Of a DNA stretch of 64,000 nt, positions 1,853-60,005 are shown piece after piece. The first letter of the stretch is position 1; every line of letters begins with the position of its first letter. Source of the DNA: Thermoanaerobaculia bacterium (GTDB lineage: Bacteria > Acidobacteriota > Thermoanaerobaculia > Multivoradales > Multivoraceae); the NCBI GenBank assembly GCA_963664405.1, contig OY761158.1:1056001-1120000 (forward strand). Reading direction: 5' to 3'. Under the pieces are notes generated by a model, which was not told the DNA's origin, made no database searches, and was given only the letters and a program-made list of their open reading frames with translations. A program made the position numbers and the translations under genes.

Positions 1853-2914
1853 ATGAGTGGACCGCACCTGAGAAGCGCTACAACGAAGAGTGCAATCCTC
1901 GCGCTGGTGCTTGGAGGTCTGCTCATCGCGGCCACGAGCCCGGCTGCTGAAAGTGACCGTCCCGCCGCGCCGCGCTCCTCGGACGGTCGGCCGGATCTGG
2001 AGGGAGTCTGGGATTTCCGAACCCTGACTCCTCTCGAAAGACCGAAAGACACGGTTGAGAAGGCCCAGCTGACGGAAAATGAGGTGGTCGAGATCGAGAC
2101 CAAGGCCGCCGCCCGCACGCAAGAGCAGGATCGGCCGAGTGACCCTGATCGCGGGGCGCCGCCGGAGGGCGCCGGCGTGGGCTCCTACAACAGCTTCTGG
2201 TACGACCAGGGTGCTCTGGTCAGCGAAGATCGCCGCACTTCGCGGATCGTCGACCCTCCGAACGGTCGACTGCCCGCGGTGCATCCTGGGGTGAAGAGAC
2301 AGATGCTTGGCGACGACCTGCCGCCGGATCTGCCGGTACGACTGCGAGTCGGCGGAATCGGCTCCTATGGCCCTGAGAGTCGCGGCCTGGCGGAGCGGTG
2401 CCTACTGGGGTTCAACATCGGCCCGCCGATCATGCCCGGCGGCTACAACCAGAACATCAGGATCGTGCAAACGAAGGATCACCTGATGATCCTCAATGAA
2501 ATGGTCCACGAAGCGAGGATCGTTCCGATCGACGGTCGGGGACGTGTGCCGATGCATATCCGCCCGTGGACCGGCTCCTCGCTGGGGCACTGGGATGGCG
2601 ACACCCTGGTTGTCGACACGGTGAACTTCAAGGATGAGCTCTCGAGCTTCTCGGCAACCGTCTTCGCGGCAGTGGGCTCGGCGAAGCACATGCGCCTCAC
2701 CAAGCGCTTTCGGCGCCTCGACGAGGGCACTCTCCACTATGAGTTCACTGTCGACGACCCTGCAACCTATTCCCGACCGTTCACTGCTGTCATGCTTATG
2801 AAAGAGACCGGGCAGCGGGTCTTCGAGTACGCCTGCCACGAGGGAAACTACGGCATGCGCAACATGCTCTCCGGCGCCCGAGCGCAGGAGAAGATGACCG
2901 CAGAGAGCAACTAG
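1853..2914 (+). CDS. Secreted hypothetical protein, EYACHEGN family paralog 1
   Basis: Signal peptide; GRPDLEGVW, RTSRIVDPPNGRLP, GHWDGDTLVVDT, EYACHEGNY shared with two paralogs in the window. Confidence 0.85.
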   Translation: MSGPHLRSATTKSAILALVLGGLLIAATSPAAESDRPAAPRSSDGRPDLEGVWDFRTLTPLERPKDTVEKAQLTENEVVEIETKAAARTQEQDRPSDPDRGAPPEGAGVGSYNSFWYDQGALVSEDRRTSRIVDPPNGRLPAVHPGVKRQMLGDDLPPDLPVRLRVGGIGSYGPESRGLAERCLLGFNIGPPIMPGGYNQNIRIVQTKDHLMILNEMVHEARIVPIDGRGRVPMHIRPWTGSSLGHWDGDTLVVDTVNFKDELSSFSATVFAAVGSAKHMRLTKRFRRLDEGTLHYEFTVDDPATYSRPFTAVMLMKETGQRVFEYACHEGNYGMRNMLSGARAQEKMTAESN

Positions 2915-3070
2915 CGGTCACAAGTACGGTTACCTTCGAGCGACGATGCGCCTCGCCAGCAAGGCGCGCGACTGAGGCGTACCCGGGGGTACGTCGCAGG
3001 GAGCGCAACGCTGGTGGAGAGGATGCAGCGTCGTTCCAAACGTGGCCGTATTTGTGACCGCATGTACTAG
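2911..3070 (+). mobile_element. CTAG-bounded hairpin element (MITE-like), copy C
   Basis: Imperfect inverted arms GCGGTCACAAGTACGGTTAC / GTGGCCGTATTTGTGACCGC; core GCAAGGCGCGC...GGCGTAC-loop-GTACGTC...GCGCAACG. Confidence 0.75.
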
Positions 3071-7446: not shown

Positions 7447-8346
7447 CTAGTCGGGACCCGCTCGAATCTCCGGCACGTAGGGCAATCCTGGTGGGAAACA
7501 CCCTGCTGGGAAGATCGCTTCTTTGTCCCCCTGCTTGAGCCTCTCCGCGGCTTCTCGGTAAGCAGAGACGAACTCCCGGAGCTCTTCTCGGAGCTCGCGC
7601 CTCGCTTGTGCAGTTGCCGCGTGAAAGGTGGGAGCCGGAGAGCTGTCGATCTCTTTGGGGCGCTCGAGGGGGTCCTGAGAGCGGATCACGTCAGGACCTA
7701 AGGGTTTGCTACGGGCCTCTCTATGACGCAGGCGAGTCTCCCGCTCAATGCGGTCCACGATTTCAGCAACCCGTCCACAGCGCTCGAGCCGCGATAGTAG
7801 TTCCCAGCGCGGCAAGGGCCATAAATGGATCGTCTCCTCGACAAGGAAGTCTTTTGGATCCAGTATTTTGCCGGACCGTCTCGCTCGGTTCTCCGCGGTC
7901 AGATCTCGCCACACGCCCCGGACCTCGGAGTAGCCACGGAGAAGCTCACTGGCACAATGAACCCCGGGCCAGTCACTCGGTCTGATCACCAGGTTCTCTT
8001 TGCTTCCCTGGGAAAGCATGTAGAAGAGACGCGAAATCTGGGCTTCCTCTTCATCCGAGACAACGATGTGCTGATACCGGCGCGACCAAAACTTATCCGT
8101 CCAATTATGAAGACGACCGACCTTGCGTGCCACGTTGCCATTGACGAACTGCATAAAGCTCGAGAGCTGCTTCGTGCTCTCTGGGAGGAGCAGCATGTGG
8201 GAGTGATTCGAGAGAAAGGCGTAGGCGCAGATCTTCATGCCAGTGTGCCGTTGGCCCCGACCCAGGACCCCACGGATCGTCGCATTGCCCTCAGGAGAAG
8301 GGCTGAGGAGATAACGACCCTGAATCGTACGGGTGGTTACTTCCAC
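7447..8346 (-). mobile_element. HUH (Y1) transposase, REP-associated tyrosine transposase (RAYT)-like
   Basis: EVTTRT, CAYAFLSNHSHML (HUH), FWSRRY, C-terminal FPAGCFPP. Confidence 0.8.
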
Positions 8347-17680: not shown

Positions 17681-19285
17681 CTACTTGGGAAGCTTTACTC
17701 CTGCGGCAACCCTGTCCCAACAGTGATCGCCAACTCCGGTGGCGCGGATCTCCGCCTTTTGGATGCGCTGCGTCGCTTGCGTCTTGGGAAGCTCCTCGAC
17801 CTGCTCGATGTAGCGAGGAATCGCGAAACGCGGCATCCGTGGGATCAGGAATTCGACGATCGACTGGGGGTCGATCTCCATACCTGGCTTCATGACGACC
17901 GCGATCTTGACCTCGTCCTCCCCTACTTCGGAGGGCACCGAGACGGCGGCGCTCTCGACGATGTCGGGGTGAGCGTTTACACAATTCTCCACTTCGAAGC
18001 TCGAAATGTTCTCGCCGCGCCGGCGAATGTAGTCCTTCGCTCGGTCGACGAAATAGAGATTGCCCTCTTGATCGCATGTGAAGGTATCGCCGGTGTGGAA
18101 CCAGCCGTTGCGCCAGGCCTCCGCCGTCTCATCGGGCATGCCCCAGTAGCCGGCATTCAGAGTCCATGGCTCACCACGCACGATCAGCTCACCCGGGGTG
18201 TCGACAGGAACCTCCATATCGTGCTCATCGACGATTCGCACCTCGACGCCGGCCCTGGGGCGGCCGCAACTGCGGAAGGTCTCGTTCGAGACCGGGCGGT
18301 CGCCACTGGTTACCGGGCTGTTGATCTCGGTCATATTGAAGACCGTGTTCACCTCGACCCCGAATCTCCGGCAGAAGGCGTCGACGTCCGGGAGAACCGG
18401 CACCATGAGAACGTATTTCAGAGGGTTGTCACGATCGTCCTCGGCCGGCGGCTGAGACGCAAGGAACTGGGCCATCGGCCCTAGAATGACTCCCTCGGTG
18501 CATCCGTAGCTCCTGACATCTTGCCAGTAGTCCCGGGTCGAGAAGACCTCCCGAACCACCACGCTGCCGCGAGTCTTGGCGGCCCGGCATAGAGGGCCCT
18601 TGCCGGTGATGTGGTACGGCGGGTACGGCGCATAGTGCACTCCCCTCGGCCGATCCGAGCCGAACTCGACACTCATCAGGCTCTCGAGCTGCCCCCACGG
18701 CACCATCACCGCTTTCGAGGCGCCGGTGGTCCCTGAAGTGAAGATCAGGGCAGCGATATCCCACCGCTGCGGGCCCGGGCGGGGAAGCGCCTCGGCCCCG
18801 TCCAGAAACTCTTCGCCAGTCATCGTCCGACAAGGCAGCTGCGGCAACCGCTGCGCGTCACCGTTGAACACGACCACCAGCTCGACGTCGCCCAGGGCAT
18901 CCGCGATCTCGACGAGTGGATCGACGAATCGAGCGTCGACCAGAAGATGGCGGGTGCCCGTCAGCTTGATCGGGTGAGTCAGCCAGGTTCCCTTATAGGA
19001 AGTATTGATCGGTGCTTCGATCGCACCGAGCCAGCCGCAGCCGATCCACGACAGCGTAGCTTCGAAGCCGTTCGGGAACATGGTGACGACAGGTTCGCCG
19101 GCGACGACACCTTGCCGCTCCAGGGCGTTCGCCCATCTCAGAGATTCAGTAGCCAGCTCCTCCCAGTTCATCGACCTGCCATCGACGTGCTGCACCGCCA
19201 CCGCCTCCGGTGACGCAGCAGCGTTCTGAGCGACGAGCTGTGGAAGGAAGGTCTCTTCGGTCATGACGGATTCTCCCACTGCCAC
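17681..19285 (-). CDS. AMP-dependent CoA ligase, CaiC-like
   Basis: FTSGTTGASK, GWFHTGD, DYIRRRGENISSFEVE. Confidence 0.9.
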   Translation of the reverse strand: MAVGESVMTEETFLPQLVAQNAAASPEAVAVQHVDGRSMNWEELATESLRWANALERQGVVAGEPVVTMFPNGFEATLSWIGCGWLGAIEAPINTSYKGTWLTHPIKLTGTRHLLVDARFVDPLVEIADALGDVELVVVFNGDAQRLPQLPCRTMTGEEFLDGAEALPRPGPQRWDIAALIFTSGTTGASKAVMVPWGQLESLMSVEFGSDRPRGVHYAPYPPYHITGKGPLCRAAKTRGSVVVREVFSTRDYWQDVRSYGCTEGVILGPMAQFLASQPPAEDDRDNPLKYVLMVPVLPDVDAFCRRFGVEVNTVFNMTEINSPVTSGDRPVSNETFRSCGRPRAGVEVRIVDEHDMEVPVDTPGELIVRGEPWTLNAGYWGMPDETAEAWRNGWFHTGDTFTCDQEGNLYFVDRAKDYIRRRGENISSFEVENCVNAHPDIVESAAVSVPSEVGEDEVKIAVVMKPGMEIDPQSIVEFLIPRMPRFAIPRYIEQVEELPKTQATQRIQKAEIRATGVGDHCWDRVAAGVKLPK

Positions 19286-19313
19286 CCTTTCAAGTTCGGC
19301 ATCCTATCTGTAA

Positions 19314-19480
19314 CTAGACCAGCGTTTCCAAAGTCGCGCTACAATAGCTCGCGGTCATTCTGTTCGCTGGCAAGGCGCGCCGACGTAGGCATATTGGGGA
19401 ATATGTCGAGGAGGCGCAACGCCGCCAGCGGGGCAGAACGGGCCGAGATATGTAGCGCTACTTTGGAAACGCTGGTCTAG
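19314..19480 (+). mobile_element. 167-bp CTAG-bounded hairpin element (MITE-like), copy A
   Basis: 30-bp terminal inverted repeats with 1 mismatch (CTAGACCAGCGTTTCCAAAGT.GCGCTACA); inner stems and AAGGCG...CAACG core. Confidence 0.85.
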
Positions 19481-19524
19481 CCCCAGCCCGAACCTCGTCT
19501 CCCTCCGCTTCTACATGTTTCAGT

Positions 19525-56744: not shown

Positions 56745-57515
56745 ATGAACCTCGGCCGTTTTTGTCTTCTCGCCCTTGTCTGCGTCGCGTTTCTCTGTGC
56801 ACCGGTGGCCGCGGAGGCGCCCTACCACCATCTACATCTGACCGCCACCGACGCAGCCGAGGCCGCCGCCTGGTATGCCGAGCACATGGGGGGCGAGCTC
56901 GTGCGAGCCGGCCAGGGCGTCGACTACGACGGTGTGGCGGTGATCTTCTTCGTCAAGGAGGACTTCCCTGGCAGCGACGGCAGCTCGGTCGCCCACATCG
57001 GTTTTTCCTTCCAGGATCTGGCGGCGAAGATGAGCAGCTACGAGACCGCTGGGGTCAAGATCCTGAGCGAGGTCCGCGACGTGCAGGGGAAATTCAAGTT
57101 CGCCTTCGTCGAGGATCCGTGGGGTACGAAGATCGAGGTCATGGAGGATCCCAACCAGGTCGGCTTTCACCACATCCACCTCAAGAGCTCCGACCCTGAC
57201 GCGACTTTCGACTGGTACGAAGCGGCCTTCGGCGGGACTCGCGAGCGCTTCGCGGGAATGCTACCGGCGCTGCGCTACGGCAGTGTCTGGCTGCTGGTCC
57301 AGAACAGCCGCGGAGCCAAAGTGGCGGGTACCAAGGGTCGGGCCATCGACCACCTGGGTTGGAGCTTCCCCGACCTCGACGCCGCGGCCGTCGACCTCAA
57401 AGCGAAAGGTGTCAAGTTCACGATGGAGCCACGCCCCTTCCGCAACCTCAGGATCGCCTTCATCGAGGGCCCCGACGGCGTAAGCATCGAGCTCGTCCAG
57501 CCCGCTACCGAATAG
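56745..57515 (+). CDS. Secreted double-VOC (glyoxalase-like) protein
   Basis: HHLHL/HHIHL, FVEDPWG..IE and FIEGPDG..IEL. Confidence 0.85.
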   Translation: MNLGRFCLLALVCVAFLCAPVAAEAPYHHLHLTATDAAEAAAWYAEHMGGELVRAGQGVDYDGVAVIFFVKEDFPGSDGSSVAHIGFSFQDLAAKMSSYETAGVKILSEVRDVQGKFKFAFVEDPWGTKIEVMEDPNQVGFHHIHLKSSDPDATFDWYEAAFGGTRERFAGMLPALRYGSVWLLVQNSRGAKVAGTKGRAIDHLGWSFPDLDAAAVDLKAKGVKFTMEPRPFRNLRIAFIEGPDGVSIELVQPATE

Positions 57516-57590
57516 TGCACGCGGCCACAAATACGGCCACGTTTGGAACGCCGCTGCATCCTCTCCAGCGGCGTTGCGCTCCCTGCGACG
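57512..57590 (-). mobile_element. Half copy (D) of the hairpin element
   Basis: 72/79 identical to the reverse complement of the right half of copy C (2992-3070). Confidence 0.85.
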
Positions 57591-59744
57591 CTCGGGCAGA
57601 CCACCGTCGACCCTTTGGGGTCTGGCATCTTTTCGAGATCGAAGGTTTTCGCTCCGGTCTCCGGATTGAGCGCAATCGTGCAATTGGTGTAGAGCGCGTC
57701 GTTGGTGATGCCCTCTTCGTCGCTCGCTTCGAGCAGAGGACCGGTGTCGTAGGTGGGCGCTACGCCGTAGTAGACGAGGTTGAGCTCGGAGTCGTAGGTC
57801 CCCTGGTGCCACACCGAGCCGCCGCTACGCTTGTCGTAAGGCACTCCGTTCCAGCTGTTGCCGCCCGGCTCGCCCGGCTTGGCGATGGTGTCGAAGCGCC
57901 AGGCCTCCTTGCCGGTCTCGAGATCGAGGGCGACGAGAAAACCGCCGCGTGAGGCAAAGCTCGCCGTTACGCCCTGAATGACTTTGCCGCCCGCAATCAG
58001 TGGCGCACTCCGCAGCACATGACCACCCCGTCCTCCTTCCGGAACAACGATATCGATCGCCTGATCCCAAACCAGCTTGCCGGTCTTCGCTTCGAGCGCC
58101 ACGACATGGAGGTCGGAGGTGGGCACAAAGACCTTGTCGCCGAACAGTGCGATGCCCATCTTCTGACTCGAGCGTCCGCCCATCTCGCGCTGATAGCGCC
58201 AGAGCACATCACCGTTCTGGGCGTCGAGAGCGATCGTGGTGTCGGGATAGGCGTGCAGGAACATGATGCCTCCATGCACCAGCGGCATCGACATGCTCGA
58301 GCCCGGCCGTAGCGCGGTCCGCCACGCCGGAGCAAGCTGGGCCACGTTTTCGGTGTTGATCTCTTCGAGCGGGCTGTAGCTCAGACCATCGGAGCCGCGC
58401 CCCCAGGAAAGCCAATCGTGCGCTTGAGGATTGGCCAGCATTTCGGCGCTAACCGGAGTGAGATTGTCGAGCCTGGACGCCTGCACTCGCGACGCTTCGA
58501 CGGGCGCGTCAGGATCGAAGGTGGCGCCTTCGAGGAGCGGAATCTCGAGCTTTTCGAGCGCTTCGAGATCGGAGGATAAAGCCCCTCCGGCCGCAAACGC
58601 GTTCGCCTGCAGGAGGAATGCGATCAGGTTGGTGTGGGTCTCGTCGTCGAGAGTCACCGCCTCGTCGGGCGGCATGCGACGAATGTGGAACGACAGAACA
58701 TCCACCGTCTTGCCGCGCCAGTTCTGATCGAAGCGGTCACCCACCAGGCTCGGTGAGATGTGCGTCCCTCGCAGCTTGACGCCGTGACACTCTGCGCAGT
58801 GCTCGGTGTAGGCGACCTGACCCGCCGAGGCCTGCGACTCCGAGTAGGTGATCTCCGAGCCGGTCTCCTGAGCGTTCCCCTTCTCCGCCGGTTTCTCGAA
58901 CTGGGACCCGTCGAGATCACCGTTGAAGAGTGTTGTCGCGTCGTACTCGTAGCTCACAGTGAGGCCGGCGATCGGGATTGAAGTGACCGTTGTGTGAGGA
59001 AGGTTTATCCCCTCGACGACTTTGTAGTCTGCGAAAGCGATCTCGAGGATGTTGGGAAGCGCCATCCCCTGGAGGAGATGAGTCTCCTTGTCGAGGAAGT
59101 AATCCAAGGGGCTGCCGGTGATCTTCAACAGATCACACGCCACACCGCCGAAGTTGCCGTCGCCGGCTTCCTGGAACACGGCAGCGCCGTACTGTCGGTA
59201 GACCGAGGCAAGGATGCTCGGGGTGGCCGTGACCTTGGCGATACCTAGTGTCGTGTCCCGGAAATGCCTGCCTAATAGATCGAGGTCATTTCGTTCGCTG
59301 CCAAGGCGCGGCGAGGCAGGCATATTGGGAAATCTGTCGGCGAGGCGTAACGAAGGCAGCGAGCGAAAGGGGCCGAGCTATTGGGTAGGCATTTCTGGGA
59401 CACGACACTAGCTCGCCCGCATCCATGTCGCTGAGCCCCTCGAGTGAGCTGTCCTTCCAGCCTCTTTCGCCAATCCAGCCGGTCCGCTGCGAGAGCTCAG
59501 CCGTCGTCAGGGCGACAAAGCCTCTGTCGTTCTCGAGGTCGTAGGCCTCCTGGAACAGTCCACTCCAACGGCCTGCCGCGCTGTCGATGTCGACTCTTCC
59601 AGATCGCTGCATCGATTTCAGAGCAGCCAACATCTCCACTCCACCCACTGCAGTCATGTGCTGCTCGACCCGTTGTTGAGCCTCGGCTGATGGCAGAAAG
59701 AGACTCGCAGATAGGGCGACAGTCCCAAGAACGCTTCGAAACAT
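57591..59744 (-). pseudogene. Secreted cytochrome c / PQQ-dependent dehydrogenase fusion, disrupted
   Basis: Signal peptide; CAECH; WLSWGR..YSPL..IN..NV..L, ALDxxTG..W repeats; frameshifted by copy B, 3' end replaced by copy D. Confidence 0.85.
59245..59411 (+). mobile_element. 167-bp CTAG-bounded hairpin element, copy B, inserted in a CDS
   Basis: 34-bp IRs with 3 mismatches; removing 163 bp restores GAG-CTA-GGT (E-L-G) frame. Confidence 0.9.
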
Positions 59745-60005
59745 TGCGCAGACTCCTGACTCTTCGGATGATTCGAGCGCGAGTCGATGAACCCTCGCGA
59801 ACAAAACCGCGCTCAGATACGACGGTTCACTCTAACCACTATGAGTAGGCAGAACCATCACGACTAAGAAACCTACCTCCCAACTACCCTACGCTTTGCC
59901 GTCCGAATTGTTCGAAACACTCCATCGATCCCGTCCCACCGCCGCTAGGAGAAGTCGTTCGTGGAATAATGCTCTCGATCCCTGAACATCGAGAGGAGGC
60001 TCCAC

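Follow-up and report, generated by a model that had tools for sequence, protein, structure and literature searches.

The window analysed here, meaning the whole stretch of 64,000 nucleotides, corresponds to G000:C1:1056001-1120000, where G000 is a genome consisting of a single 6.78-Mb contig with a G+C content of 62.6 %. It contains three hairpin elements, referred to as copies A, B and C, and the remnant of a further one. Their positions in the window, together with those of the core found in each of the three, are as follows.

2911-3070, + strand: copy C, a 160-bp C-type MITE, left end minus 6 nt (from the sequence)
2952-3019, + strand: core of copy C (from the core alignment)
19314-19480, + strand: copy A, a 167-bp hairpin with CTAG termini that belongs to the young 'A-167' MITE subfamily (from the sequence, the fold and an empty site)
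19363-19430, + strand: core of copy A, 68 nt with three helices, internal loops whose purines are nearly invariant and an apical-stem G.U pair (from alignment A2, the consensus fold and model R1)
57513-57589, - strand: decayed C-type copy, right half only (from nhmmer and BLAST)
59245-59411, + strand: copy B, a 167-bp CTAG-bounded hairpin from the B subfamily of MITEs, which has 'TGT' ends (from the sequence and BLAST)
59294-59361, + strand: core of copy B (from the core alignment)

The original prediction had described copies A and B as being exactly 167 bp long with CTAG at both ends, and this was confirmed on the sequence. The numbers given for their similarity were also reproduced, namely 72/88 identical positions in the core, where the best ungapped 88-nt window lies at positions 30-117, and 8/25 in the outer arm, at positions 5-29 and again without gaps; over the full length 104/167 positions are identical. 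The arms are self-complementary, as had been claimed, with the outer 29 nt pairing at 28/29 positions in A and at 26/29 in B. The left arm of copy C, which had been judged to be about 6 nt short, lacks TACATG when compared to 14 other C-type copies in the genome (copies of the C-type family start with CTAGTACATGCGG), and the other features that had been listed were all found, namely internal loops common to the copies, an apical GGC...GTC stem containing a G.T wobble, and compensatory changes. The + strand of copy A folds at -108.3 kcal/mol, versus -57.4 +/- 4.1 kcal/mol for 200 shuffled sequences (z -12.4), and the - strand at -95.1 kcal/mol. The partial copy at 57513-57589 shares 92 % identity in BLAST with positions 82-159 of C (G000:C1:1113513-1113590).

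Copy A is flanked by a - strand ORF starting at 19285 and by + strand ORFs starting at 19515/19525, and the left CTAG of copy C provides the TAG stop codon of the ORF at 1853-2914. The longest - strand ORF, at 57275-59323, begins within copy B, and a second - strand ORF, at 59286-59804, terminates within it; insertion of this copy may have changed a gene start or a C-terminus.

A family with many ends and one centre

Iterated nhmmer searches found 284 related loci in the genome, and the observation of copies A, B and C as real hairpins is far beyond chance. The elements are short (about 165 bp), non-coding and dispersed. A core was found at 258 of the loci, and terminal inverted repeats, already seen in the arms of A and B, allowed 200/258 to be delimited by complementary ends, using a threshold of at least 14/19. 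When the 200 delimited elements were clustered by their ends, the groups obtained were A (113 elements), S2 (24), B/S3 (22), D (21), C (12) and E (4), with 4 singletons. Hence, the subfamilies in this single genome number at least eight, each with its own ends and all with a common 68-nt core, and the centre that the subfamilies have in common approximates to CAAGGCGCG-CGAC-NAGGC...GTCGAGGAGGCGCAACGC. Within group A, the A-167 and A-166 copies differ by a 1-nt frame shift, and 11 B-type copies with at least 97 % identity are present in the genome.

The original prediction had also proposed that terminal sequence is not conserved among these elements. Within subfamilies this was not the case, as the ends are well conserved there, with the first 16 nt identical in 92/147 delimited copies, and they also show IS630-like features. 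Self-complementary arms that differ between subfamilies are what TIRs matched to different transposases give and are not evidence for RNA structure. What is truly unusual is seen only at the level of the superfamily, where the core is kept and the ends are replaced.

A number of variant copies were found. A 13-nt insertion following GAGGAG in the core occurs in elements of both the A type (e.g. G000 135396-135574) and the D type (e.g. G000 1755291-1755388), giving variants of about 179 bp, and its presence in both suggests recombination or conversion between subfamilies. A-type variants of 242 and 255 bp carry an unrelated 82-bp repeat nested in an internal CTAG, which arose in A-type copies by a change of GGCAAGG to GGCTAGG. 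This repeat (e.g. G000:C1:481163-481244) gives about 75 BLAST matches, none of them in the window, and is without terminal inverted repeats. A further insert, a 2.5-kb unit, occupies precisely the apical loop in two A-type MITEs (G000:C1:6272417-6275122 on the - strand and 6758844-6761549 on the + strand) and encodes a 308-aa tyrosine recombinase and a 399-aa ORF that by eye resembles an IS91-type transposase. The two units are 97.3 % alike, and a third A copy has a remnant in its loop (2170873-2171083), in the opposite orientation. This unit looks like an IS that targets the apex of the MITE. It was considered as the parent element and rejected, both on account of the reversed remnant and because the two full copies have diverged by 2.7 % and the MITE halves around them show no difference from copy A.

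Target site, mobility and the candidate transposases

The outer tetranucleotides of the 200 delimited elements were CTAG..CTAG in 182, CTAG..CTAA in nine, TTAG..CTAG in four and TTAG..CTAA in two. The inner TAG...CTA was constant among them and variation was confined to the outermost base. These end variants fit the duplication of a TA in a YTAR target by an element that, judged from its ends, would start with G and end with C. Where elements adjoin they share one CTAG, and some elements are nested in a CTAG.

Twelve copies in the genome are within two mismatches of copy A, and every one of them lies in different flanks. A 1098-nt contig from run X10 covers positions 19163-19313 of the window and resumes at 19477, skipping 163 nt (19314-19476), with 4 letters at the junction that fit either side, and a 9941-nt contig from run X8, which belongs to a different study, is also without copy A. 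The flanks in both are about 97-98 % identical to the window. Since the X10 and X8 contigs join the flanks of copy A over one CTAG, related populations possess the unoccupied site, with only one CTAG, and presence/absence polymorphism with precise borders is found for this copy. One CTAG in the empty site and two in the filled site are compatible with duplication of TA, duplication of the 4-bp CTAG or zero duplication. The proposal that the elements are mobile and non-autonomous was thus upheld by the empty site, by the near-identical A copies in different flanks and by their zero coding capacity, and the family has been active recently in the lineage.

In PMC2170065, IS630-family elements are described as inserting at TA and duplicating it, and a preference of IS630 for TA within CTAG is given in the title of a paper cited there (Tenzen & Ohtsubo 1991). 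The genome contains two IS630-family copies (PF13358; NCBIfam NF033545 at 113.7 bits versus a cut-off of 100). One is a complete, CTAG-bounded IS of about 1.25 kb with the HTH and DDE parts in different frames, and the other is 5'-truncated. Two IS types of a second genome, G034, also score above the NF033545 cut-off, and both are CTAG-bounded. When the ends of the MITEs were compared to those of the resident IS630-family IS, the C-type ends matched its left end at 19/30 positions beyond the CTAG, a score that none of 500 shuffles reached (maximum 18). The best match of an A-type end to an IS630 end was 16/30, which reaches only the 95th percentile of the shuffle maxima, and B-type ends are absent from the 12 best end pairs listed in this comparison. 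Transposases with matching termini had been suggested as a check, and in this genome such a resemblance was seen for the C type, while an IS with A- or B-type ends was not found.

A search of G000 for inverted pairs of ends 200-6000 bp apart found no autonomous IS whose ends are of type A, B, S2, S3, S5 or C; it yielded only nested-insert variants, one chance pair in a host gene and the two copies with the 2.5-kb foreign IS. Three pairs of whole MITEs in +/- orientation about 1.65 kb apart were also considered as an autonomous element and rejected, as the genes they enclose are unrelated host genes. Among other DDE transposases, DDE_Tnp_4 gave zero matches in the genome and IS4/IS5-type DDE_Tnp_1 genes gave 26. 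No core was found inside an IS630 copy, only beside such copies. Among 151 genomes of the order, 32 had both the core and an IS630 match, 34 the core only, 33 IS630 only and 52 neither, a co-occurrence that is not significant (odds ratio 1.48, p 0.25); 34/66 core-bearing genomes of the order, and 5/10 of those with the highest copy numbers, were without an IS630 match.

In genomes G034 and G080 the ends of IS630-family ISs lie about 50-60 nt from MITE cores (in G034, L198:642-866 and L205:1263-1378). The ISs and the MITEs adjoin as if both use rare CTAG sites that the MITEs supply.

From the YTAR target, the structure of the ends and the similarity of the terminal repeats, it appears probable that IS630/Tc1-mariner-type transposases cut and paste these elements in trans, and that the terminal repeats of each subfamily match a different transposase. 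That the arms differ between subfamilies yet are complementary within each element would then be due to the terminal repeats matching different transposases.

The 68-nt core: fold, strand and distribution

An alignment of 19 core sequences from this and eight other genomes (A2) gave a three-helix fold, with compensatory changes in 11/17 pairs and a G.U pair in 17/19 sequences. In a larger set of 104 distinct cores, 95.1 % of cells are paired versus 72.9 % after shuffling, 15/17 pairs have changed on both sides, and the covariation score is 0.524 versus no more than 0.075 with the partners slid. The position of the G.U pair is occupied by G.U in 83 of these, by G-C in 13 and by A-U in two. The unpaired A, G and GA positions of the core are nearly invariant in the 104 cores, though the A3 alignment was made by fitting to the model, and a pattern that fixes 24 positions supplied about half of its sequences, so that invariance at those positions is partly built in. 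Covariation of the central structure, as claimed in the original prediction, is thus found in both sets. A mini-ORF is not conserved, with the ATG column in the apical stem (column 61) being T in 45 and C in 51 of the 104 cores.

The covariance model of the core (R1) scores 94.9 bits on the core of copy A (G000:C1:1075363-1075430). The search of relatives that had been recommended was run with it, and the core was recovered in 66/151 genomes of the order, representing 45/64 genera and 12/12 families, and in 42/151 genomes sampled across the phylum, both tallies including the unpublished genomes G157 and G210. Several of the order genomes have at least 34 scored matches. An exact degenerate pattern with 24 fixed bases gave at least 116 matches in genome_contigs, for which about 0.1 would be expected by chance according to our estimate. 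Among the 80 pattern matches listed, 48 are labelled as Acidobacteriota or its classes, 30 as other phyla and two as 'bacterium' only. The other labels among those 80 are Planctomycetota, Gemmatimonadota, Myxococcota, Thermodesulfobacteriota and Bdellovibrionota as well as Omnitrophota (including the complete genome NZ_CP019384.1), Binatia, Eisenbacteria and one Oscillospiraceae. Some of these may be due to mis-binning, but not the multi-megabase contigs or the complete genome. PLSDB plasmids gave no match to copy A in blastn, viral contigs had zero matches to the exact core pattern, and a comparison of the window with Rfam 15 gave zero matches at the gathering score, while around A, at E up to 10, the only match was one of 12.9 bits (E 4.5).

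Several of the records found with the pattern contain a hairpin of the same kind, about 165 bp long and CTAG-bounded, but with different arms. Only 30/104 non-redundant elements from other genomes have repeats bounded by TAG..CTA at a distance of 70 nt or less from the core and, hence, other architectures exist. In one of these, two cores in opposite orientation lie about 45 nt apart in a single TIR-bounded element of about 300 bp for which a three-way junction is predicted (L079:1450-1730, L076:1440-1740, L091:7290-7600 and L198:580-865). In view of the two-core elements and the variable bounding repeats, the core behaves as a module in several vehicles. Single-copy cores (L071 and L080) are found at ordinary intergenic sites beside response-regulator and tRNA-synthetase genes.

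That one strand folds better than the other had been part of the original prediction, and this was the case for 200/200 delimited copies in the genome, always with the core + strand as the better one and with a mean difference of 7-37 kcal/mol depending on the subfamily. Among elements from elsewhere, made non-redundant by their arms, 98/104 fold better on the core + strand. The bias is also seen in the arms alone, where G.U pairs make up 315/3567 on the + strand versus 171/3344 on the - strand; per element, the arms have more on the + strand in 66 cases, fewer in 20 and the same number in 18 (Wilcoxon p 9e-8). This strand bias fits selection on the fold of one strand, whether as RNA or as DNA. 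With the origin and terminus taken from cumulative GC skew (2.75 and 6.77 Mb), the better-folding strand is on the leading-strand-template side at 154/258 loci (154:104, p 0.002), possibly as a result of selection against stable hairpins on the lagging-strand template.

A stronger form of the original prediction would make the core a free-standing structured RNA gene or riboregulator, with a host-level function explaining its conservation and the MITE being its vehicle. In that case covariation, conservation of unpaired purines, a G.U pair and a bias towards one strand would all be expected, and its wide occurrence outside one lineage would also fit. The gene context was examined with a crude GC3-based caller, which called 5372 genes. 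By the type of gap they occupy, the 200 delimited elements fall into tandem (89), convergent (64) and divergent (26) gaps, with 21 inside called genes, compared to 3213 tandem, 1079 convergent and 1079 divergent gaps genome-wide. An end of the element coincides with a called stop codon, supplied by the TAG of CTAG, in 87 cases; it is because CTAG contains TAG that many surviving copies lie exactly on gene stop codons. However, the orientation of the elements is unbiased relative to the flanking genes, with 39 in the same and 50 in the opposite direction to neighbouring transcription in tandem gaps (p 0.29) and 36 versus 51 relative to the gene at stop codons (p 0.13). No promoter or terminator was identified, there are hundreds of copies per genome in random contexts, including those 21/200 inside called genes, and elsewhere two opposite cores are found within one element. 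Contigs from metatranscriptome-library runs X19 and X20 contain the right half of an A-167-type copy (window positions 19363-19482) with 100 % identity, joined to flanks other than those of the copy A locus, and from these neither transcription nor strand is deducible. An RNA gene carried by the MITE thus appears unlikely.

Alternatively, the core might have no function of its own and reflect common descent and recent horizontal spread, with its pairing kept by palindrome correction through template switching or arm conversion. The whole element is palindromic and pairing alone is therefore expected, related sequences can beat shuffled ones without any structure, a fixed pattern was used to collect some of the aligned sequences, and the 13-nt insertion seen in both A and D subfamilies suggests exchange between elements. 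However, correction of one arm by the other would erase asymmetry, and the asymmetric loops (AAG versus AAC, and the tandem GA) are kept across families with unrelated arms, as is the asymmetric G.U pair in 83/104 distinct cores. In addition, conservation is far higher in the core than in the ends, which are needed for mobility, and the excess of G.U pairs on one strand extends to unrelated arms. On this evidence, a core without function is quite improbable.

Relation to described elements and interpretation

MITEs known to be associated with IS630/Tc1-mariner transposases include the pneumococcal RUP, with IS630-Spn1, and the plant Stowaway elements. Like these, the elements described here are short and non-coding, with TIRs, a TA target, the potential to form a long hairpin and, as we infer here, mobilisation in trans. 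However, families of IS630-type MITEs are defined by conserved ends with a drifting interior, while ours is defined by a covarying 68-nt centre that crosses phylum labels, and this one centre is combined with no fewer than eight types of end in a single genome and with many others in further genomes. The Correia elements (CREE) of Neisseria are TA-flanked hairpin MITEs present in hundreds of copies, with subtypes distinguished by their ends and a functional central site. They resemble our elements in being hairpin MITEs with TA flanks, hundreds of copies and subtypes that differ in their ends. They are unlike them in being limited to one genus and in having as their centre a DNA site bound by IHF rather than a strand-biased, covarying fold, and there is no sequence relation between the two.

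The name and size of the Correia elements are tabulated in PMC3184786, which also describes Chunjie of Geobacter, an A+T-rich MITE with 9-bp direct repeats and a very stable hairpin, and the cyanobacterial Nezha, a MITE with a very stable hairpin and ends in common with ISNpu3. Very stable hairpins are shared with our elements, but neither family is reported with a core that crosses phyla. A further IS630-type MITE, MITEEc1_IS630, is named in PMC11602168. In kind, the elements are IS630/Tc1-mariner MITEs, and they are distinct from RUP, Stowaway, Correia, ERIC, Nezha and Chunjie because the conserved unit is the covarying central fold while the ends are replaced. The original prediction could not name a described family, and none was found in the literature covered, though supplements on MITEs (such as that of PMC11602168) might contain one; Rfam likewise has no match.

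REPs, in the definitions given in PMC3733652 and PMC2817692, are high-copy palindromes of 20-40 bp with a GTAG or CGTC tag at one end, and what is described there for REPs and REPINs, namely a high copy number, a terminal tetranucleotide, a location mostly at gene 3' ends and the importance of single-strand folding, is shared by our elements. It is nonetheless very unlikely that the latter are REPIN/REP-like hairpins moved as ssDNA by HUH (Y1, RAYT or IS200-like) transposases, with CTAG in place of the GTAG tag, for although a strand-specific fold would follow naturally from an ssDNA mechanism, 13 ORFs with a Y1_Tnp domain (about 300-440 aa) are present in G000, the orientation is biased by replichore (154:104) and the single CTAG of the empty site also fits insertion without duplication, an element lies within 1 kb of only 1/13 Y1_Tnp ORFs and within 4 kb of three versus about 4.4 by chance, the inverted repeats are terminal and full-length, the elements measure about 165 bp and carry CTAG at either end rather than having 20-40 bp and one tag (PMC3733652), variation at both outer bases follows YTAR, the same kind of CTAG-bounded end is found on IS630-family ISs within the phylum, and the better-folding strand is commoner on the template of the leading strand than on that of the lagging strand. 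As Y1_Tnp ORFs are rarely near elements, there is no REPtron-like pairing of the kind found in the portrayed REP/REPIN-RAYT systems, where the transposase gene is flanked by its repeats. The Y1_Tnp ORFs in G000 are diverged and IS200/RAYT-like, with one in the window at 8032-8274 on the - strand and 12 elsewhere.

We conclude, with a probability of about 0.78, that copies A, B and C represent three subfamilies of one MITE superfamily that is mobilised by IS630-type transposases and shares one folded core. The mobile-element part of this is ordinary and well supported, and the strand-biased core is real and widespread. Each element is an imperfect palindrome of about 165 bp that has inserted at the TA within (C/T)TA(G/A), usually CTAG, whereby the single CTAG of the empty site becomes CTAG-element-CTAG. 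In the mechanism proposed, transposases of the IS630/Tc1-mariner type would act in trans, a different one on the terminal repeats of each subfamily, and the core would persist through successive exchanges of the ends.

As to why it persists, the odds are about even that selection acts on the fold of one strand, either as RNA or in the form of single-stranded DNA, and so maintains the core while the ends exchange. A bolder version, in which the core is an undescribed, structured and strand-specific payload under selection (RNA or ssDNA) that has repeatedly swapped its ends and rides IS630-type transposases through many phyla, is put forward tentatively, with the balance somewhat against it. A role in cis for the spread or the tolerance of the element, for example as a folded site for a conserved host factor, in place of a free regulatory RNA, is more doubtful.

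At hundreds of sites in each genome, stop codons and intergenic regions have been rewritten by the elements, which also break metagenome assemblies, with many matches located at contig ends, and for these reasons a model of the elements would help annotation. MITEs are usually defined by their ends, with interiors that are thought to be neutral, and here a short folded module is the most conserved part, whether subfamilies of one genome or records of many phyla are compared. If the payload reading were true, the structure and not the terminal repeat would be the heritable unit of the family. Should the module be needed for transposition, this would be a cis requirement new to Tc1-mariner/IS630 elements and, if it works as RNA, it would represent an abundant and widespread class of structured RNA that is missing from Rfam.
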